DNA from: a virus
Reading direction: 5' to 3' (one strand)
DNA length: 64,000 nt
Virus record (IMG/VR): IMGVR_UViG_3300033146_004974
Location: 1-64,000 of that record
Position numbers and translations under genes: made by a program. Shown here one piece after another: positions 39,420 to 58,420 of this stretch (position 1 is its first letter; the number at the start of each line of letters is the position of its first letter). Below the pieces are notes generated by a model. It ran no database searches. It was not told where the DNA came from and was given only the letters and a program-made list of their open reading frames with translations.

Positions 39420-40905
39420 AGATTATGTTAAAAAAGAATATAAGAATCTCCCTGAACCTGTTATTGCCGATGATTTGAGCATTATTGTTTCGGAAGGTTA
39501 CAAAAGTGCAATGAATCATTTGCTTCTTGAAGCGAAGTTTGATTATTCCCAATTACCGACGGAAATGAAATCAAGGATATCCCTTTTCAACTCTATGCTC
39601 AAAAAAAAGGGAGATGATTTTCTGACTCTTGTGGACAAAAAACTATTGGCCGATTCAGTGAACAAATTGTCAGACACGGATGGCAGCATTGATAGCACTA
39701 AACTGATAACAGAGTTTATGAGCGGTTCATCAATCGGGAATTTTGATTTAAGCAAGAAAAATATCAAAAGCATTTTAAACGTTTTTGGCCAAAAAGGGGT
39801 GAGCATATTCATTCTCTCAGAGAATGGTTCATTGATTGGCAATTTTTCTGATCTAATAACCTTTTTATCGTCAAAAGATGGTGAAAAAGGCTATGAGGTA
39901 ATTGTTGCCAGGACAGAAAAGGGAAGGCTTTCATTTTCAAGTTTCAACATCACAAGAGAAAATTTTTTCTACTTTTTCCCAGCTAAGAAATACTTTGAAT
40001 ATACTCCAGATGATTTTGCAAAAGAAAATTCCTTAGAAGTACTTGGGAACAAAATTCCAACGCACAGGAAAGATTTGAGCAAAATTATTTCGCTGAATGA
40101 AGAAGTGAAAGTTGAGATCTTTTCTGACATTAATGGCAACATTTTCTCTGATATCAAAGATTTTGACAAAGAAGAGTTTTTCGAGAAGGTTTTGCCATTT
40201 TCCGGGAGAGTTGGACAATCTGATTCAATAAGAACCGATTTGCCTGATGGGATGGATGGATATAAATCTGCAATTGAACTTGTTAAATCTCACCCAGAAT
40301 CAGAAGAAATTTTGCAGAAATATGCAATGTATGCAGGTATGACTGAAAAAGAATTTTATGATACAATTTCTCCAAAAAATGGAAGGAAAAGGTCATATGG
40401 AACAATTTTTAAGAATCGTTTTGAATTAATTCTGAAGGTTGCGAACAAAATTAATAAGATGAAAAGGAAGCTTGGAACTGAAAGTGAAATGAAGCCAGGG
40501 CTTCCAATTCAGAATGCTCTTGTTGAGCTTGAGGATTTTGCCGAGAAGAAACCTACTTTGAAAGATTTAAAGGATTTGGCTATTTTTGATCCAATCTCTT
40601 GGGGCAATATTCTTATTAACAATTTAAAATATCAGAAAAATGGGTTTGTTGGAGGTGAATTTGAGTTGACCAAAAGAAAACTGGAAAAAAACATCGTCAA
40701 ACTTGGTTCTATTCCGAATGACCCTAACTATTATACAAAAGCTTCTGACAAAATTGATAAATTGATAGAAAAGAAAATTGATGATTTAAATTCATCAACA
40801 AACCATATTATCGATTTTGTTAGAGATTCGTTGAAACGACAATCAAAACGTGTTAAGCTCGAAAAAGAGTTGAACAAATTCAAAGAGCAAATTGGAGGTT
40901 TCTAA
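39403..40905 (+). CDS. hypothetical protein
   Basis: 500-aa ORF. Confidence 0.7.
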   Translation: MKNIIKDYVKKEYKNLPEPVIADDLSIIVSEGYKSAMNHLLLEAKFDYSQLPTEMKSRISLFNSMLKKKGDDFLTLVDKKLLADSVNKLSDTDGSIDSTKLITEFMSGSSIGNFDLSKKNIKSILNVFGQKGVSIFILSENGSLIGNFSDLITFLSSKDGEKGYEVIVARTEKGRLSFSSFNITRENFFYFFPAKKYFEYTPDDFAKENSLEVLGNKIPTHRKDLSKIISLNEEVKVEIFSDINGNIFSDIKDFDKEEFFEKVLPFSGRVGQSDSIRTDLPDGMDGYKSAIELVKSHPESEEILQKYAMYAGMTEKEFYDTISPKNGRKRSYGTIFKNRFELILKVANKINKMKRKLGTESEMKPGLPIQNALVELEDFAEKKPTLKDLKDLAIFDPISWGNILINNLKYQKNGFVGGEFELTKRKLEKNIVKLGSIPNDPNYYTKASDKIDKLIEKKIDDLNSSTNHIIDFVRDSLKRQSKRVKLEKELNKFKEQIGGF

Positions 40906-42482
40906 TGAAGAAAAAAATCCTTTTCGATCAAGAATTGCGTCGCGAGATTCTAGAAGGTGTTAGGAAGTTATCAAAAGCCGTTAGTTCAACGTTGGGGCCA
41001 AAGGGACGGAATGTCATTATTCGTCACAAGGAGAAATTGCCATTCATGACAAAAGATGGCGTAACTGTCGCGCAATCTTTTGTCATTTCTGACAATGTTG
41101 TGCAGAATGCGGCTGCACAAATTGTTAAAGAAGTCTCGCTGAATACAAACAAAGAAGTTGGTGATGGTACAACAACTGCCACAATTTTGACTCATAGTAT
41201 TCTTGAAAATTCTGATAAATACTTGACGAGTGGGATTTCTCCAATTGAATTACAAAGGGGAATTGAAAAGATTTCCTCATTTATTCTTGATGAAATTCAT
41301 TCAGAAAAACAATTTGTCAAGACTGAAGAGGATGTTAAGAACATTGCAACAATTTCTGCCAATGGTGATGAAGAAATTGCAGAAATTGTTGCAACTGCCG
41401 TGACATCCGTTGGTTTAGATGGTGCTGTGACAGTTGAAAACGGTTTTGGGAAAACAAGTCTTGATATGAAAGAAGGCTTCCTCTATCCTTCTGGATTTTT
41501 GACACCACATTTTATCACGAATCTTGATTTAAGGAATACGACCACATTAAATCCTTTCATTTTTATCACTGATTATGACATTAGTGCTGTTGAGCATTTC
41601 ATGCCTGTTATCGAAGTGGCGGCGGCAGTTAACAGAGATGTTTTACTTATTGCACCAAGTATTAATAAAACGGCCTTGAAAGCTTTGATCAGCAATGAAT
41701 TATCGGAAAAGACTGTTAATCGTGTAATACCGATTGAAGCAGCTTTTTTCGGCAATCGTCAAAGTGATGTTTTATTTGATTTGGCCACAAAGGTTGGCGC
41801 GACAGTTATTTCAATTAAAAACAATCTCGTTTTTGGCCAGGCTGCCATTAAACATCTCGGAACAGCAGAGAAAGTTGAAATCAACAATTATCAAACACTA
41901 TTTTTGGCTGTTGGCAATCAGGAGGAAATCGATTATCGCTTGAAAGATATCGAACATCAAATGAAACAACCGAACACTCCGCCAGAGGATGAGCAATTTA
42001 TGCATGAGCGAATTCTCAGGCTAAGAAGTGCCGTTGCGATTATTCAAGCAGGGGGAAATTCTAAACTTGAAATGATTGAGAAAAAGCATAGGATTCAAGA
42101 TTCTATTGAGGCAGTTAAAGCGGCAATAACATTTGGTTATTTGCCTGGTGGCGGATCATTTCTGCTAAAGGTTGCAGACAAATTTGAGTCTGATGGTTTT
42201 TCTCTTGGTGAAAAAGGCGGTGTTGAGATTATCAAGAAAGCGTGTACCGAGCCGGTTCGACAACTTGCGAAGAACTCAGGATTAGTTCCAGACGTTGTTG
42301 TCAACACAGTTTTGAAAAGTGAAAAAAATTGTGGAGTGAATATGTCAAATGGTTTGGAATGCAATTTGATCGATTCTGGCATCATCGACCCAGCACAAGT
42401 GATTGAAGTTTCGTTTAAGAATGCTGTATCGGTTGCAGGAACTCTTTTGATGGCGGGTGTCGGGATTATTGAAGAGGAATAA
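40905..42482 (+). CDS. groEL: GroEL-like chaperonin
   Basis: TLGPKGRNV, TKDGVTVA, GDGTTTAT, PGGG, GIIDP; lacks the GGM tail. Confidence 0.95.
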   Translation: MKKKILFDQELRREILEGVRKLSKAVSSTLGPKGRNVIIRHKEKLPFMTKDGVTVAQSFVISDNVVQNAAAQIVKEVSLNTNKEVGDGTTTATILTHSILENSDKYLTSGISPIELQRGIEKISSFILDEIHSEKQFVKTEEDVKNIATISANGDEEIAEIVATAVTSVGLDGAVTVENGFGKTSLDMKEGFLYPSGFLTPHFITNLDLRNTTTLNPFIFITDYDISAVEHFMPVIEVAAAVNRDVLLIAPSINKTALKALISNELSEKTVNRVIPIEAAFFGNRQSDVLFDLATKVGATVISIKNNLVFGQAAIKHLGTAEKVEINNYQTLFLAVGNQEEIDYRLKDIEHQMKQPNTPPEDEQFMHERILRLRSAVAIIQAGGNSKLEMIEKKHRIQDSIEAVKAAITFGYLPGGGSFLLKVADKFESDGFSLGEKGGVEIIKKACTEPVRQLAKNSGLVPDVVVNTVLKSEKNCGVNMSNGLECNLIDSGIIDPAQVIEVSFKNAVSVAGTLLMAGVGIIEEE

Positions 42483-42895: not shown

Positions 42896-43681
42896 ATGAT
42901 TTTCAAAAAATATGAATCTTTCTTGAAAAGCAATATTCAACGCCATCACAATCGTGTATCAATGATTAAAAAAATTGATATTGCGATTGAATATGAAGAT
43001 TTTATAGATGCACAATTGCATTATGATATTGCAGTGCTTTTGCTTTCCGAAATGAGGAAAACTTGGGCACTGGATAGGATAGCAATAATTTTTTCATTTC
43101 ATAGCGAAAAAATTTTGGAAGATAGGAAAAGGGAGTTTGAGAACTTTGTTGTCAATCAGGATCAAAGGGCACAGTTAAAGAAAGTTTTGAATTATTTTGA
43201 CTTATCTAATTCTATGATATATGAAGAGAATTATATGATGAAGAAGTATTACAGAATGCGAAACGCTTTAACATTTGGTGACTATATCAATCCACAAGAT
43301 TTAGGAGGATTTGTTGGCGAAAAAAGTGTGAATAAAATCATCTCCAATCTTAACAAGCCAGCTATTTACGAGTCTGGAGATCTGTTGTTGATTAATTTCA
43401 CCAGAATGAAAAACGACAGATTTCGCAAAATCTTCGATCTTCATTATTACCAATCGAAGAATTACATCAGAAGTGGTCTCTTTTTCGTTCTGTCCGAAAC
43501 AGATATTGTTGGCCCATCAGGAAGAATGTATAGAGGATGGTTATTTACAGGCGATAGAAAATTGGATGTTCACATTGGAGAACAATTCTTAAAAAAATAC
43601 CGTTTTACTAAGAGGATGAGGAATGATATCAGGAAATTTAGAAAAGAACATGGACAATTACAATCGAAATCCTATTATTAG
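42896..43681 (+). CDS. hypothetical protein
   Basis: 261-aa ORF. Confidence 0.65.
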   Translation: MIFKKYESFLKSNIQRHHNRVSMIKKIDIAIEYEDFIDAQLHYDIAVLLLSEMRKTWALDRIAIIFSFHSEKILEDRKREFENFVVNQDQRAQLKKVLNYFDLSNSMIYEENYMMKKYYRMRNALTFGDYINPQDLGGFVGEKSVNKIISNLNKPAIYESGDLLLINFTRMKNDRFRKIFDLHYYQSKNYIRSGLFFVLSETDIVGPSGRMYRGWLFTGDRKLDVHIGEQFLKKYRFTKRMRNDIRKFRKEHGQLQSKSYY

Positions 43682-43946
43682 AGTTCAAAAAACGGTAGAT
43701 TGGAGAAATTTTAGAAACCTTTTGGAACATGAATGGAGCGAATTTCAAGATCTTGTGGAATGGGGGGGGATGGATGTTTTCAAATGGGATTCTGAAGAGA
43801 TGGCCGATTCGATGTTGAGAATTAAACTGAAATTTGACGATTTGTACACAAATTTTGAAGCTTACTTGGAAATAGAGAAAAAAATTGAAGATAACACACC
43901 AAGAAATGAAGAAGACATTCCAGAAGTTGAACATTCAGGCGATTAA
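43650..43946 (+). CDS. hypothetical protein
   Basis: ORF in operon. Confidence 0.55.
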   Translation: MDNYNRNPIIRVQKTVDWRNFRNLLEHEWSEFQDLVEWGGMDVFKWDSEEMADSMLRIKLKFDDLYTNFEAYLEIEKKIEDNTPRNEEDIPEVEHSGD

Positions 43947-44202
43947 CGCTTCAATATTGAGTGCAGAAGAAGAGCCACAATGGATTCCTAAAAAAGAAGG
44001 AGTTCAAGAGCTTTTATGGAATTTGAAAGAAGATTGTGAAGAGACTGTGAAACTGATGCTGAACTTTTTTCATCCTTCAGTTGAAACTGATGCTGAAATT
44101 AATGATGAAACTTTTGCAGAATTGTTTATCAAACTTGAGCTGAATTTTGCAATGACAGAATTGTTGAGAAGAGAGTTTTCCATTTCGCTTTTGTTGCACT
44201 GA
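43885..44202 (+). CDS. hypothetical protein
   Basis: ORF in operon; start uncertain. Confidence 0.5.
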   Translation: MKITHQEMKKTFQKLNIQAINASILSAEEEPQWIPKKEGVQELLWNLKEDCEETVKLMLNFFHPSVETDAEINDETFAELFIKLELNFAMTELLRREFSISLLLH

Positions 44203-44210
44203 AAGAGAAA

Positions 44211-44681
44211 ATGTTGAGCAAAATAGCGCTTTTTATGTTCAAGTTAAGCTCATTTTATTCGCTTGTGGCATTGTACTCTATTGTCTCATTCGGTTTCTGC
44301 ACTCTTCAGACATCATTACTAATTGGTTTTGCAGCAGTGTGGTTGATGCTGATGAACAAAGCTTTTTACTCCTTTTTCAAGTCGTATCTTGAAGTTTTGC
44401 CATTTAGGGTTGACAAAAGCAAGACTTATCAAGTTTCTTACGATATCATTTTCCCAATGGCAGTTCTGCTTTCATTCAATATGATCACCTTTTATGGATT
44501 TTTTGCAATACCTTTTCTAATTGCAGTCATCGGTAGCAAAACTTACCCATATTCTTTTGGCAAACAAATTTATTTAGTTCGTGGGGAGAAATTGTTCTAC
44601 ATCATTTCCAAACGTCCATTGTCAAAAGTGACGCATGTGCGTTGTTTGAGCAATGTTCTATATATTGATGTAGAAAGGTGA
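44211..44681 (+). CDS. multi-pass membrane protein
   Basis: About four hydrophobic segments. Confidence 0.6.
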   Translation: MLSKIALFMFKLSSFYSLVALYSIVSFGFCTLQTSLLIGFAAVWLMLMNKAFYSFFKSYLEVLPFRVDKSKTYQVSYDIIFPMAVLLSFNMITFYGFFAIPFLIAVIGSKTYPYSFGKQIYLVRGEKLFYIISKRPLSKVTHVRCLSNVLYIDVER

Positions 44682-44685
44682 TGCA

Positions 44686-44901
44686 ATGAAATTTTGCAAA
44701 GAATCGGAAGAAGTCAAATCGTTTGAAAATGATTTTGAAGCTTTTGTTTTATATGAAGAATGGGGTGTTGATGATTGTTGTTTCAAATGTTGTTTTATTT
44801 ATTTCGCATGTTGTTTTATTGCAGTTGATAATACGCCCGTCTTAGAGAACCAAGTGGGACCTACACATGTAAGTTACAATTTCAGCAGAAATTGGATGTG
44901 A
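44686..44901 (+). CDS. 71-aa Cys-rich peptide, copy 1
   Basis: Acidic N-part, core DDCCFKCCFIYFACCFIA, conserved C-part. Confidence 0.6.
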   Translation: MKFCKESEEVKSFENDFEAFVLYEEWGVDDCCFKCCFIYFACCFIAVDNTPVLENQVGPTHVSYNFSRNWM

Positions 44902-44931
44902 TACAATAAAGTTGGCAAAAGACGAAAGTCT

Positions 44932-44987
44932 TCGAAACAGCACGAATCCTCGCCGTGTTTGACTCCTGAGCGCGGGTGTGACATTGT
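44932..44987 (+). promoter_or_regulatory. phage promoter family member
   Basis: TCGAAAC..AATCC..TTGACT-N17-CATTGT. Confidence 0.7.
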
Positions 44988-45037
44988 GAAGGTGCAAGCG
45001 AAGGAATATCACAAACACGTTGTACAAGGCGTTGACA

Positions 45038-45232
45038 ATGAAATTCCGTCAAGAATCAGAAGAAGTCGAATCGTTTGAAAATGATTTCGAAACTTTTGTT
45101 ATATATGAAGAATGGGATATTGATGATTGTTATTTCGCATGTGGTCCTGCTGGAGTTGATAATACGCCCCACTTGGAGAATCAAGTGGGGCTTACACATG
45201 TAAGTTACAATTTCAGCAGAAATTGGATGTGA
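45038..45232 (+). CDS. 64-aa peptide, copy 2
   Basis: Paralog of copy 1, frame preserved, core DDCYFACGPAG. Confidence 0.6.
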   Translation: MKFRQESEEVESFENDFETFVIYEEWDIDDCYFACGPAGVDNTPHLENQVGLTHVSYNFSRNWM

Positions 45233-45262
45233 TACAACAAAGTTTGCGAAAGGTGATACATC

Positions 45263-45318
45263 TTGAAACGGCGCAAATTCGTACTGTGCTTGACTCCTAA
45301 GCGCTAGTGTGGCATTGT
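45263..45318 (+). promoter_or_regulatory. phage promoter family member
   Basis: TTGAAACGGCGCAAATTC..TTGACT-N17-CATTGT. Confidence 0.75.
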
Positions 45319-45369
45319 GAAGGTGCGAGCACGGAATCACCACAAACACGTTGCACAAGGCGTTGACAA

Positions 45370-46164
45370 ATGTATATTCAAAACTTTGTTGTTGAAGTTA
45401 CCAGAAGATGTAACATGGTTTGCTCTCATTGCTTGCGAGGGAAAGCCCAGAATCTTGAAATGAGTCGAGAAACAGTTTCGCGTTTGTTTCGCGGAATTGA
45501 TAGTATTAGGGCTTTAACGATAACAGGTGGAGAGCCAAGCCTCGCCGTCGAAAGAATTGAATGGATCATTGATGAATTGAAAAACAATCATGTCGAACTT
45601 GGCTATTTTTATATTGCAACAAATGGTAAGAAAGTTTCTCAAGAGTTTTTGATTGCTTTGATCAAACTTTATGCACTTTCTGATGAAAAAGATATGTGCC
45701 AAGTCCTTGTTTCGACAAGCTATCATGATTTGCCCGTGAATAATGATCAATTGGAACTCCTTTCGGCATTAAATTTTGTCGAGATTCAGAAGGATGCTCC
45801 TTTCGCCTTGATCGAACAAGGATTCGCAGAAAATTTGTCCGGCAACAAAAGAGAATTAAGCCTGGAATGGTTTGAAGTTGATGAAGATAGTATAATGGAT
45901 GGATATATTTATATCAATGCAAAAGGAGATTTCATTCCATCTTGCGATATGTCTTATGACAATCAAGATTTGGTTGCCAAATTTGGCAATGTGAACGATG
46001 ATGGTTTTAATTATTTTGAGGCCATTGAACAGTTTAATGAAATACAGGAATATTCTCCCATCAATGAGGACAGTGAATATGGGATTTGCTTTAGTGAGTT
46101 GATCGATAGATTGATGGAAAAGTACAAAAACATTTGGAGTTTTAAATGTTCATCTGCTGCATGA
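45370..46164 (+). CDS. radical SAM enzyme 1
   Basis: EVTRRCNMVCSHC (CxxxCxxC), ITGGEP, ATNG, YINAKGDFIPSC. Confidence 0.93.
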   Translation: MYIQNFVVEVTRRCNMVCSHCLRGKAQNLEMSRETVSRLFRGIDSIRALTITGGEPSLAVERIEWIIDELKNNHVELGYFYIATNGKKVSQEFLIALIKLYALSDEKDMCQVLVSTSYHDLPVNNDQLELLSALNFVEIQKDAPFALIEQGFAENLSGNKRELSLEWFEVDEDSIMDGYIYINAKGDFIPSCDMSYDNQDLVAKFGNVNDDGFNYFEAIEQFNEIQEYSPINEDSEYGICFSELIDRLMEKYKNIWSFKCSSAA

Positions 46165-46598
46165 TTATTGTTACAATTGTAGCATGGATTTCTCAAAATG
46201 CTTTGCATGAAATGGCGCACTTTTTGGTGGCGAAATATCATTTCAATGTTAAGCTGAAAACATTCAGAATCTTTCCTCACTTTCTGGGAAAAGATGGAGA
46301 AGTCTATTATCTCCCATTCACTCTCAAAAAGCCTGAAGGTGCGCGGTTTTTATTCGCAAGGGTTGAATGGGAAGGAGGAGAGTCAGAAAGTGCCGCAAAA
46401 ATGAGACAAGTTCTTGCAGCACCGCTTGTTGCTTCATTTGCTTTAATCCTTCTGCTGCTCATTGCAGAAAGTTTGACAGGATTCAGCTTTTTTTATTCCC
46501 CATTTTATCTAACATCAGGAATCAACATCGTTTGGTGGATTTGGGGAATGAAATTTGGCTCAAAATTTTCTGATGGCAAAAGATATTTGTCATTGTGA
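46146..46598 (+). CDS. membrane metalloprotease-like protein (M50/S2P-like)
   Basis: ALHEMAH within a TM segment, VLAAP, C-terminal SDG. Confidence 0.65.
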   Translation: MFICCMIIVTIVAWISQNALHEMAHFLVAKYHFNVKLKTFRIFPHFLGKDGEVYYLPFTLKKPEGARFLFARVEWEGGESESAAKMRQVLAAPLVASFALILLLLIAESLTGFSFFYSPFYLTSGINIVWWIWGMKFGSKFSDGKRYLSL

Positions 46599-46604
46599 GG
46601 AAAA

Positions 46605-47627
46605 ATGGAAATTTTTGACAACAAAGAATTCAAGATTCTTAGGTCAGATGAGTACAACTTCGTTTTTGACAAAAAGACTGGAGTTTTCAAAAGGTGGGGA
46701 AAGACTTTTGACGATGATCCAGAAGAAGGTCTGCCAGAAATTGCCGATATTGAAATTTCAGAAGTTTGTTCTGGAGTCTCTGGAAGTGGTTTGTGTAATT
46801 TTTGTTATAAAAGCAACACAAAGTCTGGGCGGAATATGAGCCTTGAGACCTTTAAAAAGGTCTTTTCCAATCTTCCGAAAAGCGTGACTCAAATTGCTTT
46901 TGGAATTGGTGATATTGAAGGTAATCCAGAGATTTGGGATATTTTGTGGCACACCAGAAACAATGGTGTCATTCCCAATATTACAATAAATGGACAAGGG
47001 ATAACAAAAAAAATTGCGCATAAGTTGGCCAGTGTTTGCGGCGCTGTTGCAGTCTCTTTGTACAACAAAGAATTAACATTTGATGCTGTTCATAAGCTTT
47101 CTGAAGAAGGTTTAAAGCAAGTTAATATCCATTTCTTTTTGGCTGAAGAAACATATGAAAGGGCGTTAAGAACTCTTGATGATATCAAGAATGACGAAAG
47201 ATTGGCCAATTTGAATGCGCTAGTCTTTTTGTCGCTGAAGTCAAAAGGCCGTGCCAAAGGTAATTTCCATTCTCTTTCGCAAGAGAGATTCACCAATCTT
47301 GTGGAAAAATCAATGGAAAAAGGAGTTAGAATCGGTTTTGATTCATGTTCGGCATTTAAATATCTGAATGCTGTTGGATATGAAGAACCACATATTTCAT
47401 TCACAGAGCCTTGCGAAAGCACTCTTTTTTCAATGTATATAAACGTTGAAGGAAAATTTTTTCCATGTTCTTTTATGGAAGGTGAAAAAGGTTGGGAAAA
47501 AGGAATTGATTGCACAAGTGGAGAATTTTTGAAAGCAGTATGGAATCATGGGAGAACATGCAGAACAAGAAATTTAGTGAAAATTGCAAGAAAATCTTGT
47601 GTTAATTGTCACCATTTTAAAATTTGA
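46605..47627 (+). CDS. radical SAM enzyme 2 with SPASM/twitch-like C-terminus
   Basis: CSGVSGSGLCNFC (Cx8Cx2C), NITING, PCES..YINVEGKFFPCSF..CVNC. Confidence 0.88.
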   Translation: MEIFDNKEFKILRSDEYNFVFDKKTGVFKRWGKTFDDDPEEGLPEIADIEISEVCSGVSGSGLCNFCYKSNTKSGRNMSLETFKKVFSNLPKSVTQIAFGIGDIEGNPEIWDILWHTRNNGVIPNITINGQGITKKIAHKLASVCGAVAVSLYNKELTFDAVHKLSEEGLKQVNIHFFLAEETYERALRTLDDIKNDERLANLNALVFLSLKSKGRAKGNFHSLSQERFTNLVEKSMEKGVRIGFDSCSAFKYLNAVGYEEPHISFTEPCESTLFSMYINVEGKFFPCSFMEGEKGWEKGIDCTSGEFLKAVWNHGRTCRTRNLVKIARKSCVNCHHFKI

Positions 47628-47637
47628 GGGAAAATAA

Positions 47638-48162
47638 GTGAAAGTTAGACACGGTTTTGTTTCAAATTCATCGTCAAGTTCGTTTCAATGCGGAGTTTGT
47701 GATGAAATTGCATCAGGTTGGGATGTCTCTTTTGAAGATTGGGGGATATATCAGTGCGGCATTTGTGAACAAACATATTGCGAACATCATGCGTTACCAT
47801 TGACGTTTGGGAATGTCCAAAGGGGAGTTGAAAAACTGATAAAAAACAGTGAAAAATCATTTTCCAATGATTTTCATGTTGACCAAGAAGTTTTGCAAAT
47901 TTTGCAGAATCATTCTGGGATGCTTGATGAACACGGACTGGATGATTTGCAAGAACTTTTCGAAGCCGGGACAAAATGGTCTGAACCAATGGTGAGAAAC
48001 TTTGTTGCAACAGTTTGTTGTCCAATGTGTTCAATGCAAAAGATGTCTCCAAGATTATATGTTAAGTACATCTTGAAACATCATTTGAAGATGACTGAAG
48101 AAGAGGTGCTGGCTTCTTTGAGAGGGAATGGTGTTACATTTGAACAACTTATGTCACCATGA
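47638..48162 (+). CDS. 'FVSNSSSSS'-motif Cys-rich protein
   Basis: MKVRHGFVSNSSSSSF N-terminus; CGVC, CGIC..CEHH, CPMC. Confidence 0.8.
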   Translation: MKVRHGFVSNSSSSSFQCGVCDEIASGWDVSFEDWGIYQCGICEQTYCEHHALPLTFGNVQRGVEKLIKNSEKSFSNDFHVDQEVLQILQNHSGMLDEHGLDDLQELFEAGTKWSEPMVRNFVATVCCPMCSMQKMSPRLYVKYILKHHLKMTEEEVLASLRGNGVTFEQLMSP

Positions 48163-48220
48163 ACTCAGGAGGAGAAGAACAGTGAACAAATTACAATAAC
48201 GTAAAAAGCTGAGGAAAAAA

Positions 48221-49474
48221 ATGAGTACATTCACATTCAAAGAAGTTTTGGCTGCAATCCCATATCTCATTGACAATCAGACTGGGAAGAAAAAGTTTGG
48301 CATCATGCTTCGTGGTCCACATGGAATTGGCAAAAGCGAATTTATTGCTCAAATTGGCCACAAATTGGGGAGAAAAGTTCTTGATGTTCGTCTTTCACAA
48401 AAAAGTGAAGGCGATTTGATGGGATTGCCAACAATTGTTGAAGGAGATGATGGTTTTTCTTCAACAAGATTCCACTCTCCAGAATGGTTTATGCAAGCCT
48501 GTCGCGAACCAGTTGTTCTTAATATGGATGAGTGGGATCGAGCAATAACAGAAGTTCGCCAAGGAGCTTTTGAAATTGGCGATTCAAGAAAGCTGGATAT
48601 GAAAGAGCTTCATCCAGATACTTTAGTTTTTACAGCGTGCAATTCTGGAACTGAATTGACTTCTGGTCAATATGATGTTAATGATCTTGATCCAGCGGAA
48701 CTTGATCGTTGGTTTGTCATTGATTTAGAACCTTCCGTTGACGACTGGTTGGCGTGGGCTTCAAAAAATGAAATTCCAGAAGTGATTTGGGATTTTCATA
48801 ATGAAAATTCAAGAACCACAAATCATCTGGAATTCAATGGGGTTTCAGAACCAAACAAGATTTACCCTTCGAGAAGAAGTTGGGCAAGATTTGCGGACGC
48901 AATCAATAATTATCTTCTTCTTGAAAAGAAAAAAAATGTTGGGGAAATGGATAAAGAAATCCTTTTCTTCCTTGGTTGCGGATTTCTGGGGGATGAGACA
49001 ACAGCAGCTTTTATTAAATACACTCAAGAGTACAAACATGGTGAAAAACCTTCCCTGGAAGACATTCTTGACCATGGGAAGTTCCACAAGTTGAAGACCT
49101 GTGAAGCAACTGATCACATTGCAATTGTGGAGAAGTTTAAGAAAAAATATCCTGTCACAAAGGGTGATACATTCATTCTTAATGGGCAACAGATTGAGAA
49201 TCTTGCGGAGTATGCAGTAAATTATTGCCCACCTGAAGTAGCAATTTTGTTGTTTAATCATGTCACTTTCCTTCCTGCAAAGGATGAAGAAATTCAAGTT
49301 TTGATGAGACGAACGAGGAGAGAAAGAGGGAGCACTCACCCAACGGGACGGTTGTTTTCAGATGCAATGAGAATTTATAATTGCAAAGTTTTTGAAAAGA
49401 GAACAGGGGAGTTGACAACATTCAAAAAGTATTTTGCTTCATTTGCTGGGAAATCTTCTCTGATCAGTTTTTAA
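48221..49474 (+). CDS. MoxR-like AAA+ ATPase
   Basis: GPHGIGKS, DVRLSQ, NMDEWDR, DPAELDRW, PSRRSW. Confidence 0.9.
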   Translation: MSTFTFKEVLAAIPYLIDNQTGKKKFGIMLRGPHGIGKSEFIAQIGHKLGRKVLDVRLSQKSEGDLMGLPTIVEGDDGFSSTRFHSPEWFMQACREPVVLNMDEWDRAITEVRQGAFEIGDSRKLDMKELHPDTLVFTACNSGTELTSGQYDVNDLDPAELDRWFVIDLEPSVDDWLAWASKNEIPEVIWDFHNENSRTTNHLEFNGVSEPNKIYPSRRSWARFADAINNYLLLEKKKNVGEMDKEILFFLGCGFLGDETTAAFIKYTQEYKHGEKPSLEDILDHGKFHKLKTCEATDHIAIVEKFKKKYPVTKGDTFILNGQQIENLAEYAVNYCPPEVAILLFNHVTFLPAKDEEIQVLMRRTRRERGSTHPTGRLFSDAMRIYNCKVFEKRTGELTTFKKYFASFAGKSSLISF

Positions 49475-49513
49475 ACGCAATGCTTTTGCATTGCGGAATT
49501 GGGGTGGTGAAAA

Positions 49514-50830
49514 ATGTCTCTTTTTGAAAAAGAAGTCGTCAGATTATTATACGAAGAACCGTTTTTTGCAGCTTTGTCAATGAGGATTAATAAACGTGCG
49601 ATAAAAGGTGGGCATATTGCAGGAGTGGGGATTGTCAATGGACGTTTGGAAATGGTTTATAATGAAGAAATGTTTTTCAGTCTCGATGCTGAAACGCGTC
49701 TTGGGCTTTTAAAACATGAAATGTATCACATTGTTTTGGCGCATTTAACGGAAAGGCTACTGTACTCAGACGAATCAAAAGAGATGCAAGAAATTTATGC
49801 AGTTGTTGCTAACATCGCTAAAGATTTAGCAATTAATACGCATATCCCCTCATTGAGCGGTGTTAAAAAGGTGCTTGTTAAAGGTGAAATGCAGGAAATT
49901 TATTTTTGTATTCCAGGTGGTAAGGGATATGAAAAATATCCTCCGAATTTGACTTCTGAAGCATATTACGACATGCTTAAAAAAGATGAGGAATTCCTCG
50001 CGACATTCAAATGTTCAGTTTGTAAAAAGAAGATTCCATTTAATGAAAAAGACGAGCTGAAAGATGATTATTGCAAAGGTTGCAAAGGTTACGGCGGGGT
50101 TTTGGGAGAAAGTGGTCCAGAACATGGGAATCACGATAAGCATGAAGGATTTGGAGAATCGAAAGTCAATGATGCGATTCTTAAGGATGTTCTAAACAAG
50201 GCTTACAAAGATGGATTGCGCAAAGGTTTTGGGTCTTTGTCGCATGAATATCAGGAGCTTTTGAAAAATTATTTTTCAAACTATGTTGATTGGAAGATGC
50301 TTTTTAGAAGATTTGTAAAATTTTCCATCAGAAATGGAAAAAAATCATCTTTGATGAAGTTGAACAAACGATATCCTTATATGTTTGCAGGAAAGAAATA
50401 TAACAGAACTGCCAACATTGCGGTGTCAATTGACGAAAGCGGCTCTGTTAGCAATGAAATGCTTGAAGTGTTCATAGCAGAGCTGAACTCTCTTTCGAGA
50501 ATGGTGGAATTTACTGTTATCCCTTTTGACACAAAGATAAACAAAAAAAATATCTTTGTGTGGAAAAAGGGGAGCAAATTAGATTTTATTCGTCGCCAAG
50601 CTGGCGGAACCGACTTCGATGCACCGACAAACTGGGTGAATGAGAATAAATCTCCAAATGGTTCTAAATTTGATGGTCACATTATTCTAACAGATTTAGA
50701 AGCTCCTCAACCTGGCCCAAGTCGTTGTAAAAGAATGTGGATTACAACTGAATCATGCAGTAATAGCTATTTCGATCCAAAAAGCATTGGAGAAGTTGTT
50801 ACTTATATCCCGGATGAACAACTAAGATAA
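49514..50830 (+). CDS. VWA-like domain metallopeptidase (DUF2201-type)
   Basis: KHEMYH, NIAKDLAIN, IDESGSV (MIDAS), GGTDF, LTD. Confidence 0.9.
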   Translation: MSLFEKEVVRLLYEEPFFAALSMRINKRAIKGGHIAGVGIVNGRLEMVYNEEMFFSLDAETRLGLLKHEMYHIVLAHLTERLLYSDESKEMQEIYAVVANIAKDLAINTHIPSLSGVKKVLVKGEMQEIYFCIPGGKGYEKYPPNLTSEAYYDMLKKDEEFLATFKCSVCKKKIPFNEKDELKDDYCKGCKGYGGVLGESGPEHGNHDKHEGFGESKVNDAILKDVLNKAYKDGLRKGFGSLSHEYQELLKNYFSNYVDWKMLFRRFVKFSIRNGKKSSLMKLNKRYPYMFAGKKYNRTANIAVSIDESGSVSNEMLEVFIAELNSLSRMVEFTVIPFDTKINKKNIFVWKKGSKLDFIRRQAGGTDFDAPTNWVNENKSPNGSKFDGHIILTDLEAPQPGPSRCKRMWITTESCSNSYFDPKSIGEVVTYIPDEQLR

Positions 50831-51690: not shown

Positions 51691-52442
51691 TGGCATGGCA
51701 AAGGGGGAGTAGCGTGCGACAAAAAATAGAATTTCTCTTGAATTCGATTACGAACGTTAAAACAGGAAGACATGCTATAAGAAAGATGTCTAGACTTTTA
51801 AAGGAAAATGGCGAATTTGTTGCACCAATTGGTTTGGGCAATATAAAAACGGGATTGCCCGGATTTTATCGAAAGGTTGGTGACAATTGTCCAACTTGTA
51901 AGTTTAAAAACGATGGGTGTTACGCTCAACTTGGTTATGTTGGGATTGTTGAAAAACGTTCTCCAACTTCTTCTGAAGCGGCTTTGAACGGATTTCTTAT
52001 CTCCACAATTGTTTCGCAAAAATATTACAACAAACCTTCAAGATTGTTTGTATCTGGTGATATTTTTATAAATGGAGAATATGACAAAGAATTACATAAT
52101 TCTTTAATTGAAGCTGGACAAATTCTCCAAACAATTTTTGGAACAGAAACTCTTGCATATGGATACACTCATGGCAAAAATCTTTTAAAAGAAATTAAAG
52201 AATTGAAGAGTGCTGGAATTGTTTTATTGCAATCAGAATTTCATGGTGTTGGAGGTTCTGTTGTTCATCATTTTAATAAATTTGATGAGCTAAAAAGTAA
52301 TGAATTTCGCTACATAAAATGTCCTGCACAGCTCAGAAAAGATTTCCAATGCAGTGATTGCAAATTATGTATCAAATCTTATGAAAAGAAGTTGTGCATT
52401 GTTTTTAATCCACATGGGGCACTGAAAGGGAAATTCAAATGA
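51690..52442 (+). CDS. Cys-rich phage protein (GP88-like)
   Basis: NIKTG, CPTC..GCYA, RLFVSGD, YGYTH, CPAQ..CSDCKLC. Confidence 0.7.
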   Translation: MAWQRGSSVRQKIEFLLNSITNVKTGRHAIRKMSRLLKENGEFVAPIGLGNIKTGLPGFYRKVGDNCPTCKFKNDGCYAQLGYVGIVEKRSPTSSEAALNGFLISTIVSQKYYNKPSRLFVSGDIFINGEYDKELHNSLIEAGQILQTIFGTETLAYGYTHGKNLLKEIKELKSAGIVLLQSEFHGVGGSVVHHFNKFDELKSNEFRYIKCPAQLRKDFQCSDCKLCIKSYEKKLCIVFNPHGALKGKFK

Positions 52443-53170
52443 GAATTCAAATTGTTTCTGATCTGCACATTGAAAATTATGCAGATTACAATTGGCTTAT
52501 TGAAGAGATAATAGCAACAAAAAACAAATATAAATCCGACATTCTTGCAATTGCAGGAGATGTCGGAAATTATCCGAAAAATTTAGAATTGATTGAAAAA
52601 TTTGGGAAATATTTTTCTCAAGTTATTTTTGTATGGGGGAACCACGATTATTACAACAACCGTGGAAAATTAATTTTAGAAACCGAAAAAAGATTCGCAA
52701 AATCGGATAATATCCATTGGTTGCAACAAAATAGAATCGAAATTGATGGTCAAGGGTTTATTGGGGCGACATGCTGGTTCCCCAAAAGAAAAGATGATCA
52801 AAAATATGCTCACATGATGGCCAACAAAATTTATTCTGAATCAGAAGGAATGTCGTGGATTTATTCTCAACATCGCTTGGCAAAGAAATTTTTTAAAGAA
52901 AATATGAAAGATGGTGATATAGTTTTGACTCACCATATGCCAACATATCGATGCGTGAGTCCAAAATTTTCTGGTTCCCCTTTGAATCGTTTTTTTGTCT
53001 CTTCAATGACGAAAGAAATTAAAAAGGCTAAACCTTCTTTGTGGATTTGTGGTCATACACATGACAAATTTTCGGTAGAACAGTTTGAAACAGCAATTGT
53101 AGCAAATCCTTTTGGATATCCGAGCGAGATAAGGTTGCGAGGAATTTCAGAACTTGTTTTGGAATGGTGA
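52439..53170 (+). CDS. calcineurin-like metallophosphoesterase
   Basis: SDLH, AGD, GNHD, THH.P, GHTH, NPFGY. Confidence 0.93.
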   Translation: MRIQIVSDLHIENYADYNWLIEEIIATKNKYKSDILAIAGDVGNYPKNLELIEKFGKYFSQVIFVWGNHDYYNNRGKLILETEKRFAKSDNIHWLQQNRIEIDGQGFIGATCWFPKRKDDQKYAHMMANKIYSESEGMSWIYSQHRLAKKFFKENMKDGDIVLTHHMPTYRCVSPKFSGSPLNRFFVSSMTKEIKKAKPSLWICGHTHDKFSVEQFETAIVANPFGYPSEIRLRGISELVLEW

Positions 53171-56110: not shown

Positions 56111-56115
56111 AAATC

Positions 56116-56172
56116 TTGAAACGGCGCAAATTCATGCGCAGTTTGACAAAACAGGTGTGCACATGCCATGCT
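56116..56172 (+). promoter_or_regulatory. phage promoter family member
   Basis: TTGAAACGGCGCAAATTC..TTGACA-N18-CATGCT. Confidence 0.75.
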
Positions 56173-57061: not shown

Positions 57062-58420
57062 ATGAAAGTTGATGTCAAAAGAGTTGAAAACCAAGAGTTT
57101 CAAACCGCTTTGAAACTGATGAAAAAGGTTGAAGCGGAAGGGTATGAAATTCTTATTGTAGGAGGTTTTGTTCGAGATCTTCTTTTGGGAAGGAATTCTG
57201 ATGACATTGATTTGAGCACAAATTGCCCTGAAGATGTTTTGAGCACTCTTTTTGAAACATTTGACATCGGAAAATCCAAATCTTTTGGAATTTCCGTTGT
57301 CAAATTGAATGATTTTGTTTTTGAGGTTGCGCAGTTTCGCCAAGATATTTATGAAAGAATGGGCAAAGGAGCTTCTTTTGCAAAGGTTGTCAACTCTTTC
57401 AAAAGCGATGCTGCCAGAAGAGATTTTACGATCAATGCGTTAGGCTTGCGGAATGATGGGACAATCATAGACCATTTCGAAGGTCAAAAAGATCTTCGCC
57501 AAAAATGCGTCAAAGCAATAGGCGTTCCTGCGCAAAGATTTGAAGAAGATGTTGTCCGAATCTTGAGAGCAATTAGATTTTCTTCAAGATTGGGATTCAC
57601 CATCGAGGAGAAAACGTTGAAAGAGATTGAAAATTTCTCAAGCAAAATGAGTGCGGTCGCTTGGGAAAGAGTTTTGAAAGAGTTGAAAAAAATGGCTTCC
57701 GGGAATGGGACTCAGTTTGCGCACGCAATTGAATTGTTGGCAAAGACTGGTGTTCTCCGGGAGATTATTCCAGAGCTTCTGCAATTGCAAGGTTTGGAAC
57801 AAAATGCGGACCATCATCCTGAAGGAAATGTCTGGGAACATACCTTGGCAGCGTTAAAGTGTAGCAACTCCCAAAATCCTTTGGTGAATTTTGCGATTCT
57901 TTTTCATGACATTGGAAAGATTGGAACTCATTCAGATGAGAATGGGAAACACAGTTATCACGGTCATGAAAAAGAGTCGTCGAAGATGTTTCGAATGATT
58001 GCGAAACGTCTGAAGATGTCAAATTCTGACATTGAGGCAATCGATTTTGCGATCTTGAATCACATGAAGTTTCACAGAATCCCAGAAATGAAGTTGGGAA
58101 AAGTTGCGAAACTGATTGGTGATAAGAATTTTGAGGTTTTGCAAAAGGTTGCGGAAGCTGATACCAAATGCAGACTTCACGCATTTAAACCAGAATCTTG
58201 GCAAAAGGTTCAGGATAAGATTGGCAAAGCAAGTCAGAAAATGGATATTGCAAAAGATTTGCCATCCGTTTCTGGCAAAATGATCATGCAGATTTTGGGA
58301 ATTCCTCCCGGACCAAAAGTTGGGATTGTCAAAAAAGCTGTTGGCAACGAAATCCTTGAATTTGGAATGCCCCAAGATTTAGAAGGTTTGGTCAGGAGGA
58401 TTGGAAATGAAATTTCATAA
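57062..58420 (+). CDS. cca: tRNA nucleotidyltransferase (CCA-adding) with HD domain
   Basis: VGGFVRDLLLG..DIDL, DAARRDFTINA, EDVVRILRAIRF, HHPEG..HT, FHDIGK. Confidence 0.93.
   Translation: MKVDVKRVENQEFQTALKLMKKVEAEGYEILIVGGFVRDLLLGRNSDDIDLSTNCPEDVLSTLFETFDIGKSKSFGISVVKLNDFVFEVAQFRQDIYERMGKGASFAKVVNSFKSDAARRDFTINALGLRNDGTIIDHFEGQKDLRQKCVKAIGVPAQRFEEDVVRILRAIRFSSRLGFTIEEKTLKEIENFSSKMSAVAWERVLKELKKMASGNGTQFAHAIELLAKTGVLREIIPELLQLQGLEQNADHHPEGNVWEHTLAALKCSNSQNPLVNFAILFHDIGKIGTHSDENGKHSYHGHEKESSKMFRMIAKRLKMSNSDIEAIDFAILNHMKFHRIPEMKLGKVAKLIGDKNFEVLQKVAEADTKCRLHAFKPESWQKVQDKIGKASQKMDIAKDLPSVSGKMIMQILGIPPGPKVGIVKKAVGNEILEFGMPQDLEGLVRRIGNEIS

Follow-up and report, generated by a model that had tools for sequence, protein, structure and literature searches.

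Do two short peptides, two radical S-adenosylmethionine (SAM) enzymes and a membrane protease, packed into 3.5 kb of a viral genome, make up a single pathway? The question is raised by positions 44,686 to 48,162 of the first 64,000 nucleotides (hereafter the window) of the 85,850-base IMG/VR record IMGVR_UViG_3300033146_004974, which comes from a large uncultured phage. Here two paralogous peptide genes (pepA and pepB), a first radical SAM gene (rSAM1), a gene for a membrane protein with an HExxH motif, a second radical SAM gene (rSAM2) and a gene for a Cys-rich protein follow one another (Table 1). An initial annotation, made from the letters alone, read them as a candidate pathway for a peptide that is ribosomally made and modified after translation (RiPP), in which a precursor, a radical SAM maturase and a membrane protease act together. 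From comparative sequence analysis we favor, with moderate confidence, a different answer: the cluster would be a juxtaposition of separate accessory modules, and its functional unit would consist of rSAM2 and the gene that starts 11 nucleotides after it. These two genes probably belong to an undescribed protein-modification system, marked by a 16-residue N-terminal tag. One part of the initial annotation stands in this answer, since the recurrence of rSAM2 with the tag makes a radical SAM modification system probable; the single RiPP pathway does not stand.

rSAM2 has no match in Pfam and belongs to phrog_7293 (E-value 6.8e-88). GenBank has 173 phage records with a match to it, the majority from T4-like phages of Klebsiella, Enterobacter, Cronobacter and Citrobacter; the radical SAM gene of RB16, RB43, KP15, KP27, Miro and GAP161 is 42-43% identical to it over the full length and has the same Cys pattern. 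A gene of this type is reported to be split in two in Klebsiella phage Kpn35c1, beside a GIY-YIG homing-endonuclease gene (paper on Raoultella phage Rpl1, PMC9960720). In the Atlas, rSAM2 falls into virus-dominated clusters. An alignment of 40 of the 55 rSAM2 open reading frames (ORFs) has seven invariant Cys residues, C55, C64 and C67 in the radical SAM motif and C248, C270, C288 and C335 after it, together with a conserved N-terminus of 45 residues that includes the segment YNxxFNxxTGxFxRWG. The SPASM- or twitch-like C-terminus that had been proposed for this protein is borne out by these four further Cys residues. The C-terminus matches the twitch region of BtrN (E-value 1e-4); the single sequence retrieves nothing relevant from the PDB sequences. 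Neither rSAM2 nor rSAM1 has an RRE or PqqD match in Pfam at E-values up to 0.1. We take rSAM2 to represent a virus-dominated radical SAM family with an unusual CX6-8CX2C motif, a conserved N-terminal extension and, by prediction, one twitch-like auxiliary cluster.

What accompanies this enzyme in other phages? Fourteen rSAM2 loci were searched by tblastn and six of them were inspected in detail. The first sign of a partner came from 24 ORFs that start with MK[IV]RxGFVSNSSSSSF and lie in five of six rSAM2 loci outside the T4-like group; no ORF with this start occurs in 80 viral loci around rSAM1 relatives (762 kb). The tag, with the consensus MKxRxGFVSNSSSSSF, is common to small acidic phage proteins that are otherwise unrelated. 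Among 22 tagged proteins, residues K2, R4, F7, S9, N10, S11-13, S15 and F16 are invariant, and past residue 20 no alignment extends across all of them, the bodies being unalignable. The tagged proteins are 56-205 amino acids long, and all 22 are acidic (isoelectric point 4.2-5.8). Some match phrog_7397, several by its first 20-36 positions only. In 196 distinct 33-nucleotide DNA sequences encoding the tag, AGY and TCN codons are both used at each Ser position, which indicates that the protein sequence of the tag is under selection.

The association between rSAM2 and the tag can be followed in both directions. Starting from the enzyme, all ten other phage records that carry rSAM2 contain 2-15 matches to a degenerate DNA pattern of the tag, and the reversed pattern has no hit. 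The ten include the T4-like phages Miro and GAP161; the T4-like phages named above have two tagged proteins each, and there, unlike in our window, the tag is about 20 kb from the enzyme. In 50 phage records that carry an rSAM1 relative (33 of them at least 90% complete; hand-picked from 80 such records so as to thin out near-duplicate gut contigs), neither the tag nor rSAM2 is found in any (0/50 for each). Starting from the tag, a scan of IMG/VR for stretches encoding GFVSNSSS gives 465 hits, and 62 loci were confirmed. An rSAM2 gene lies within 8 kb in 44 of the 62 and elsewhere in the record for four of the other 18, giving 48 of 62; the 14 records without rSAM2 are all fragments, 2-45% complete. 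All 42 loci that contain both have their nearest tag on the strand of rSAM2, and the median distance between the two is 389 nucleotides. Over 76 loci, the only recurrent families are the tagged proteins, seen in 68 of them, and rSAM2, seen in 59; the protease, rSAM1 and the peptides do not recur. A collection of species genomes adds ten confirmed tag loci, all on contigs of metagenome-assembled genomes, with rSAM2 in the locus for two of the ten. At the genome level, rSAM2 and the tag are mutually dependent, and they are usually adjacent. The rSAM2 family thus appears to travel with 1 to 15 small acidic proteins whose similarity is confined to their first 16 residues.

In our phage, the Cys-rich protein encoded after rSAM2 carries the sole tag of the entire 85.85-kb record (hidden Markov model (HMM) E-value 1.8e-10; the next best ORF has 0.4). 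Its start is the one that the initial annotation had read. With the tag removed, the body of the protein has relatives in 15 loci, and C18, C40 and a C128-P-x-C131 motif are conserved. These Cys residues likely form a zinc site that begins two residues after the tag. With the protein as query, tblastn against GenBank phages gives no match and a word-based search of 5.8 billion proteins returns only the query. Pfam assigns no family to ten tagged proteins from other phages, apart from one weak match at chance level. Flavodoxin-like electron donors had been considered as an identity for the tagged proteins and were dropped, there being no Pfam match and no alignable body.

A few smaller regularities are seen among the tagged proteins themselves. 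Three members from different phages (L089:10598-11041, L090:3671-4102 and L099:7689-8042) have the C-terminal end G[TQ]R[SM]C in common, which may be a second conserved end. Three others (L086:6297-6767, L087:5988-6446 and L099:7227-7679) form a subfamily with GxTEFGW, IDHQS and a DNDNH ending, resembling a conserved domain of its own. The L086 member also belongs to a cluster of eight proteins in eight loci, seven of which have the tag within their first 60 residues.

What might rSAM2 do to a tagged protein? It is tempting to hypothesize that the enzyme recognizes the tag at the N-terminus and uses radical chemistry to modify a residue within the serine run or beside it, as a protein-level counterpart of the leader-guided maturation of RiPPs. 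rSAM2 would then be the writer of a virus-encoded, tag-directed radical modification, which alters the serine run (e.g., by oxidation, epimerization or cross-linking) in as many as 15 acidic early proteins of a phage that are unrelated to each other; we put this forward tentatively, being almost evenly divided about it. In our 42%-complete record (CheckV), the single tagged, zinc-ribbon-like Cys-rich protein and rSAM2 would make a minimal pair of enzyme and substrate. Two known types of radical SAM system invite comparison. In RiPP maturation by SPASM/twitch enzymes with several precursors (SuiB, CteB, SkfB, ChlB), the enzyme core and one twitch-like cluster are as in rSAM2, which likewise is accompanied by many genes with a short N-terminal sequence in common. 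However, rSAM2 has full-size proteins as partners in place of short peptides, and their bodies are unrelated; what they share is no more than 16 residues, counted from Met1; the motif is CX6-8CX2C; and there is no RRE by Pfam and no recurrent protease or exporter beside rSAM2. The anaerobic sulfatase-maturating enzyme (anSME), a SPASM enzyme that modifies Ser or Cys in folded-protein substrates, also targets a short motif within whole proteins, which makes a Ser-rich target plausible. Its target motif is (C/S)xPxR, which the tag lacks; moreover, the Cys residues of rSAM2 suffice for one auxiliary cluster and not two, and anSME is not among the sequence matches listed for rSAM2. The rSAM2/tag pair would be a new form of leader-guided radical SAM maturation, one that acts on whole proteins. 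A search of the main texts of the literature for the tag motif and for SPASM and radical SAM enzymes of phages found no description of such a system.

If this is true, phages own a leader-guided radical maturation of whole proteins rather than peptides, in a system that would span T4-like Klebsiella and Enterobacter phages and jumbo phages of 460 kb. Many acidic early proteins now annotated as "hypothetical" would be given a role, perhaps as phage effectors that all pass through this one maturation, and so would the radical SAM gene of cultured, therapy-relevant Klebsiella phages, which has no assigned function. The window would be the simplest test case, with one enzyme and one candidate substrate side by side.

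The genes upstream of rSAM2 present another picture. Relatives of the peptides or of the HExxH protein are found in none of the 14 rSAM2 loci and none of the 62 tag loci, and in the comparisons that follow the peptides, rSAM1 and the HExxH protein appear to have no conserved link to each other. We therefore read them as separate accessory genes, provisionally. Elsewhere, rSAM1 stands alone. It has the CxxxCxxC motif reported for it (CNMVCSHC) and its match to PF04055 in Pfam, with 29.8 bits, just passes the cut-off of 29.5. The family counts 123 proteins including rSAM1 itself, of about 220-300 amino acids; at least 126 relatives are present in IMG/VR, and a single-protein scan of IMG/VR with rSAM1 returned none. 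We searched 80 viral rSAM1 loci by tblastn for relatives of pepA, pepB, the HExxH protein, rSAM2, the Cys-rich protein, the MoxR-like ATPase, the von Willebrand factor A (VWA) protein and the multi-transmembrane protein. Each is found in 0/80. The largest neighbor family occurs in 49 of the 80 loci and is confined to one group of gut contigs; in 16 diverse loci read by eye the neighbors differ, and an HExxH protein is in none. On the strength of these two observations we conclude that rSAM1 is a solitary gene outside our phage, and for that reason a host or small-molecule substrate seems more likely for it.

What kind of enzyme is rSAM1? An alignment of 32 of the 123 relatives has the CX3CX2C, GGEP and TNG motifs invariant, and C192 is the only Cys after the core that is invariant, so no auxiliary cluster of the SPASM/twitch type is conserved. 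The AlphaFold2 (AF2) model (predicted local distance difference test score (pLDDT) 88.1) has its best fold matches in anSME (Z 15.7, nominally the top), BtrN (15.6) and EpeE (15.5), which are effectively tied, and the viperins follow at 12-13. The model thus suggests a SPASM/twitch-clade fold like that of anSME, BtrN and EpeE. A profile of the family, compared with the PDB sequences, matches YydG/EpeE best (E-value 9.4e-10, over the N-terminal 125 positions), with the viperins next; the YydG-specific NCBIfam model is not among the best 25 of 43 matches listed for rSAM1. An enzyme of small molecules or nucleotides, viperin-like or other, that works against host defense or in metabolism and has nothing to do with its neighbors is possible, although more doubtful than not. 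It agrees with the solitary occurrence of rSAM1 (80 of 80 loci with respect to the genes of the cluster, and unconserved neighbors in the 16 that were read), with the absence of conserved auxiliary-cluster Cys residues, with the viperin fold matches and with matches to PADLOC pVip (E-value 1.8e-12) and the NCBIfam model of prokaryotic viperin (1.9e-10). These last matches, however, cover only residues 9-96 (PADLOC) and 10-96 (NCBIfam) rather than the full length, they fall far short of the cut-offs (for NCBIfam 40.4 bits, where 180 are required), and the SPASM/twitch enzymes have the higher fold scores.

The HExxH protein, whose gene overlaps the end of rSAM1 by 19 nucleotides, resembles a miniature site-2 protease of peptidase family M50. 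It has a HEMAH motif and a later DG within a multi-transmembrane protein, and its neighbors in the Atlas are M50 clusters by both features and structure (TM 0.73 by query). Its match to PF02163 (E-value 1.3e-4, 21.8 bits) is below the cut-off of 27.2, and in contrast to known members its family is 130-171 amino acids long and has no PDZ domain; it is a putative protease. Neither tblastn against GenBank phages (no match) nor a word-based search of 5.8 billion proteins (query only) found relatives. When 1.84 billion representatives were searched in full with HMMER, 13 remote ones came up. All of them keep H21, H25 and D143, and nearly all E22 and G144; five of the 14 proteins form our alignment. 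Relatives of either radical SAM enzyme are found in none of ten loci of this family (one viral, nine metagenomic), and judging from these the mini-M50 protein, too, is solitary elsewhere. In another phage (locus L164, 5348-6381) a relative directly follows ThyX-like and DHH-type genes, as named by eye.

The two peptides are paralogs, as had been noted, with 80% identity. Both are part of a tandemly duplicated stretch of about 350 nucleotides (44684-45038 and 45036-45369, 81-86% identical) that spans pepA and pepB and about 135 nucleotides of non-coding sequence after each. Since the duplication includes this spacer, the sequence that precedes rSAM1 also precedes pepB. No further long copies of the spacer are found in the record; a 21-nucleotide exact repeat joins the spacer upstream of rSAM1 (45260-45280) to a site 11 kb downstream (56113-56133). 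We place the start of pepB at the ATG at 45038, while the ORF listing begins it at the TTG at 45020. Between the two genes, the proportion of synonymous differences (pS) is 0.21 and that of nonsynonymous differences (pN) 0.10 (pN/pS 0.49). By a 21-nucleotide indel, pepA has a Cys-rich insertion of seven residues relative to pepB, and the number of Cys residues, eight in pepA and two in pepB, is not conserved.

Where do these peptides come from? Past the end of the window, at 68306-79466 of the record (locus L163), there is an array of about 24 tightly packed small genes, many with overlapping stop and start codons, whose products have the pattern MKFR...[IV]D...FxRxWQ. A regular expression for the family start and end ('MKF ... 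[FYW]x[RK]xWx-end') finds seven ORFs in the entire record: pepA, pepB and five members of the array. We built a family HMM from 18 array members, leaving out pepA and pepB, and scored it against 2115 ORFs; pepB ranks second among the ORFs outside the seed (E-value 7.6e-4) and pepA is weak (0.23). In an alignment of 26 rows, pepA and pepB share the family start and the near-invariant Asp, and they end in NFSRNW-M as compared to xFxRxW-Q. On these three grounds we identify pepA and pepB, at the level of sequence, as displaced members, duplicated recently, of a family of at least 26 small proteins that is the phage's own. A scan of IMG/VR with the single pepB protein finds no relatives, and tblastn against GenBank phages gives no match. 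With the 26-row alignment, AF2 predicts no secondary structure for pepB (pLDDT 55.7), which points neither way. A predicted complex of rSAM1 with pepB scores 0.02, compared to a mark of 0.32, an outcome that counts as no answer and as evidence for neither side. A bolder idea, that the whole family is a hypervariable library of precursors for rSAM1 and the mini-M50 protease, strikes us as extremely unlikely.

Several points weigh against our reading of the locus as separate modules around an rSAM2/tag pair. For the rSAM2/tag half, the comparison draws on records whose lineages are not independent, the 50 controls are a hand-picked and not a random sample of the 80, and 14 of the 62 tag-bearing records show no rSAM2, fragments though they all are. 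In T4-like phages the enzyme and its tags are far apart, the chemistry of the modification is a guess, and the tag has no anSME motif. For the independence of the upstream genes, the exact cluster could be compared only at a distance: none of the searched collections contains a near relative of the phage, and the best match of rSAM1 in a set of 5.8 billion clustered proteins is 45% identical. The order of peptide, radical SAM enzyme and membrane protease is also that of the epipeptide operon; the rSAM1 and M50 genes overlap; the best PDB match of the rSAM1 profile is the epimerase YydG/EpeE; and a peptide without a confident fold, as pepB is, would be expected of a substrate as well.

These last points would be accounted for by a minimal epipeptide-like module beside the rSAM2/tag pair, in which rSAM1 modifies pepA and pepB (e.g., by epimerization) and the mini-M50 protein processes them at the membrane. 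YydH of the epipeptide system is a putative M50-type protease, and EpeE uses a Cys residue as hydrogen donor, for which the invariant C192 of the rSAM1 family would be a counterpart. Besides the gene overlap, the profile match and the place of EpeE among the tied best folds, the gene order favors such a module: in Bacillus subtilis, according to PMC7026026, yydF, yydG and yydH of the YydFGHIJ (EpeXEPAB) system encode the precursor peptide, the radical SAM epimerase and a membrane-anchored putative protease. Nevertheless, the linkage is unique to our phage (0/80 rSAM1 loci, 0/10 mini-M50 loci), anSME and BtrN match the fold equally well, and the sequence match is limited to the N-terminal 125 positions. 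Unlike the B. subtilis system, the cluster has no ABC transporter, rSAM1 has no conserved Cys residues for an auxiliary cluster, and the peptides come from a large phage-specific family with unconserved cores. As the initial annotation had observed, neither an ABC exporter nor an RRE is evident; in ten proteins scanned across 42896-50830, Pfam gives neither, and no ABC-transporter family is found by Pfam or PHROG. We regard the module as unlikely.

Alternatively, the tag may be a sorting or stability signal, for packaging, injection, secretion or degradation, and rSAM2 may act on some other substrate in the same process. Such N-terminal segments bring to mind the capsid-targeting sequences of T4 internal proteins. 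That diverse proteins share only a segment beginning at Met1, and that enzyme and tags can be about 20 kb apart, would both be natural for a signal of this kind. It leaves unexplained, however, why the tag depends at the genome level on one radical SAM family (10/10 versus 0/50) and why the two are neighbors on one strand in all 42 loci, and beside them no further conserved component (e.g., a protease or portal partner) recurs; we consider the sorting signal quite unlikely. Less probable still, and in our judgment very unlikely, is the one RiPP-like pathway with pepA and pepB as precursors, rSAM1 and rSAM2 as maturases and the HExxH protein as leader protease: the genes share one orientation and leave little space between them, the Cys-rich peptides have no confident fold, rSAM1 has a SPASM/twitch-clade fold like that of peptide maturases and rSAM2 a twitch-like auxiliary cluster, but neither the peptides nor the HExxH protein have relatives in any of the rSAM1, rSAM2 and tag loci (0/80, 0/14 and 0/62), the peptides form a family of at least 26 located elsewhere in the genome, their Cys residues differ between the copies (8 versus 2, by the indel), and Pfam detects no RRE and no exporter. 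The neighborhoods thus turn up no dedicated precursors co-inherited with a maturase, which is the comparative half of the outcome that the initial annotation had itself named as refuting its model, and the caveat of the initial annotation that the two radical SAM enzymes may have separate substrates fits our reading of rSAM2 and the tagged gene as a unit of their own. An order of peptide, radical SAM enzyme and protease could arise by chance juxtaposition in the accessory regions of phages, which matters for automated RiPP mining.

Table 1. Features in and around the cluster (positions in the window).
Feature	Position	Strand	Remarks
Multi-transmembrane ORF	44211-44681	+	Upstream of pepA
pepA, 71 amino acids	44686-44901	+	ORF; member of the MKFR...[IV]D...FxRxW[QM] small-protein family
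Spacer, copy 1	44902-45037	+	Non-coding, duplicated 135 nucleotides; 82% identity to copy 2
pepB, 64 amino acids	45038-45232	+	Paralog of pepA, 80% identity; same small-protein family
Spacer, copy 2	45233-45369	+	Non-coding; directly upstream of rSAM1
rSAM1, 264 amino acids	45370-46164	+	CX3CX2C radical SAM protein (CNMVCSHC), widespread phage family
Mini M50/site-2-protease-like membrane protein, 150 amino acids	46146-46598	+	HEMAH, C-terminal SDG
rSAM2, 340 amino acids	46605-47627	+	C-SGVSGSGL-C-NF-C (CX8CX2C), four further invariant Cys; phrog_7293
Tagged Cys-rich acidic protein, 174 amino acids, isoelectric point 5.3	47638-48162	+	GTG start, 11 nucleotides after rSAM2
16-residue N-terminal tag of the Cys-rich protein, (M)KVRHGFVSNSSSSSF	47638-47685	+	Tag HMM
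AAA_5/MoxR-like ATPase	48221-49474	+	Downstream of the Cys-rich protein
DUF2201 VWA protein	49514-50830	+	Downstream of the MoxR-like ATPase

The ORFs and motifs that the initial annotation had listed are all recovered on the + strand, including the flanking multi-transmembrane, MoxR-like and VWA genes. Nearly all long ORFs of the window are on this strand, and the G+C content is about 36%. By sequence comparison, the listed genes are more than chance ORFs, since relatives exist for rSAM1, rSAM2, the HExxH protein and the Cys-rich protein, for the last in 62 viral loci. Rfam gives no credible family between 43500 and 51500. Neither promoter-like sites (29, compared to 23.8 expected from shuffled sequence) nor terminator-like sites (4, compared to 5.1) are above expectation. 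A GroEL-like chaperonin (40905-42482; phrog_5725, E-value 7.6e-117) is encoded 2 kb upstream of the cluster; downstream are genes for a metallophosphoesterase (phrog_1649, 52439-53170) and a tRNA nucleotidyltransferase (phrog_2244, 57062-58420). The MoxR/VWA pair had been considered as a part of the rSAM2/tag system and was dropped, as its relatives lie near rSAM2 and tags in just one of the 62 tag loci (L133). The pair follows the tagged gene or genes both in this window and in that locus. In phage Miro (L100, 67179-71549), the tagged Miro114 and Miro119 flank Miro117, a gene for a VWA-domain protein of 738 amino acids.

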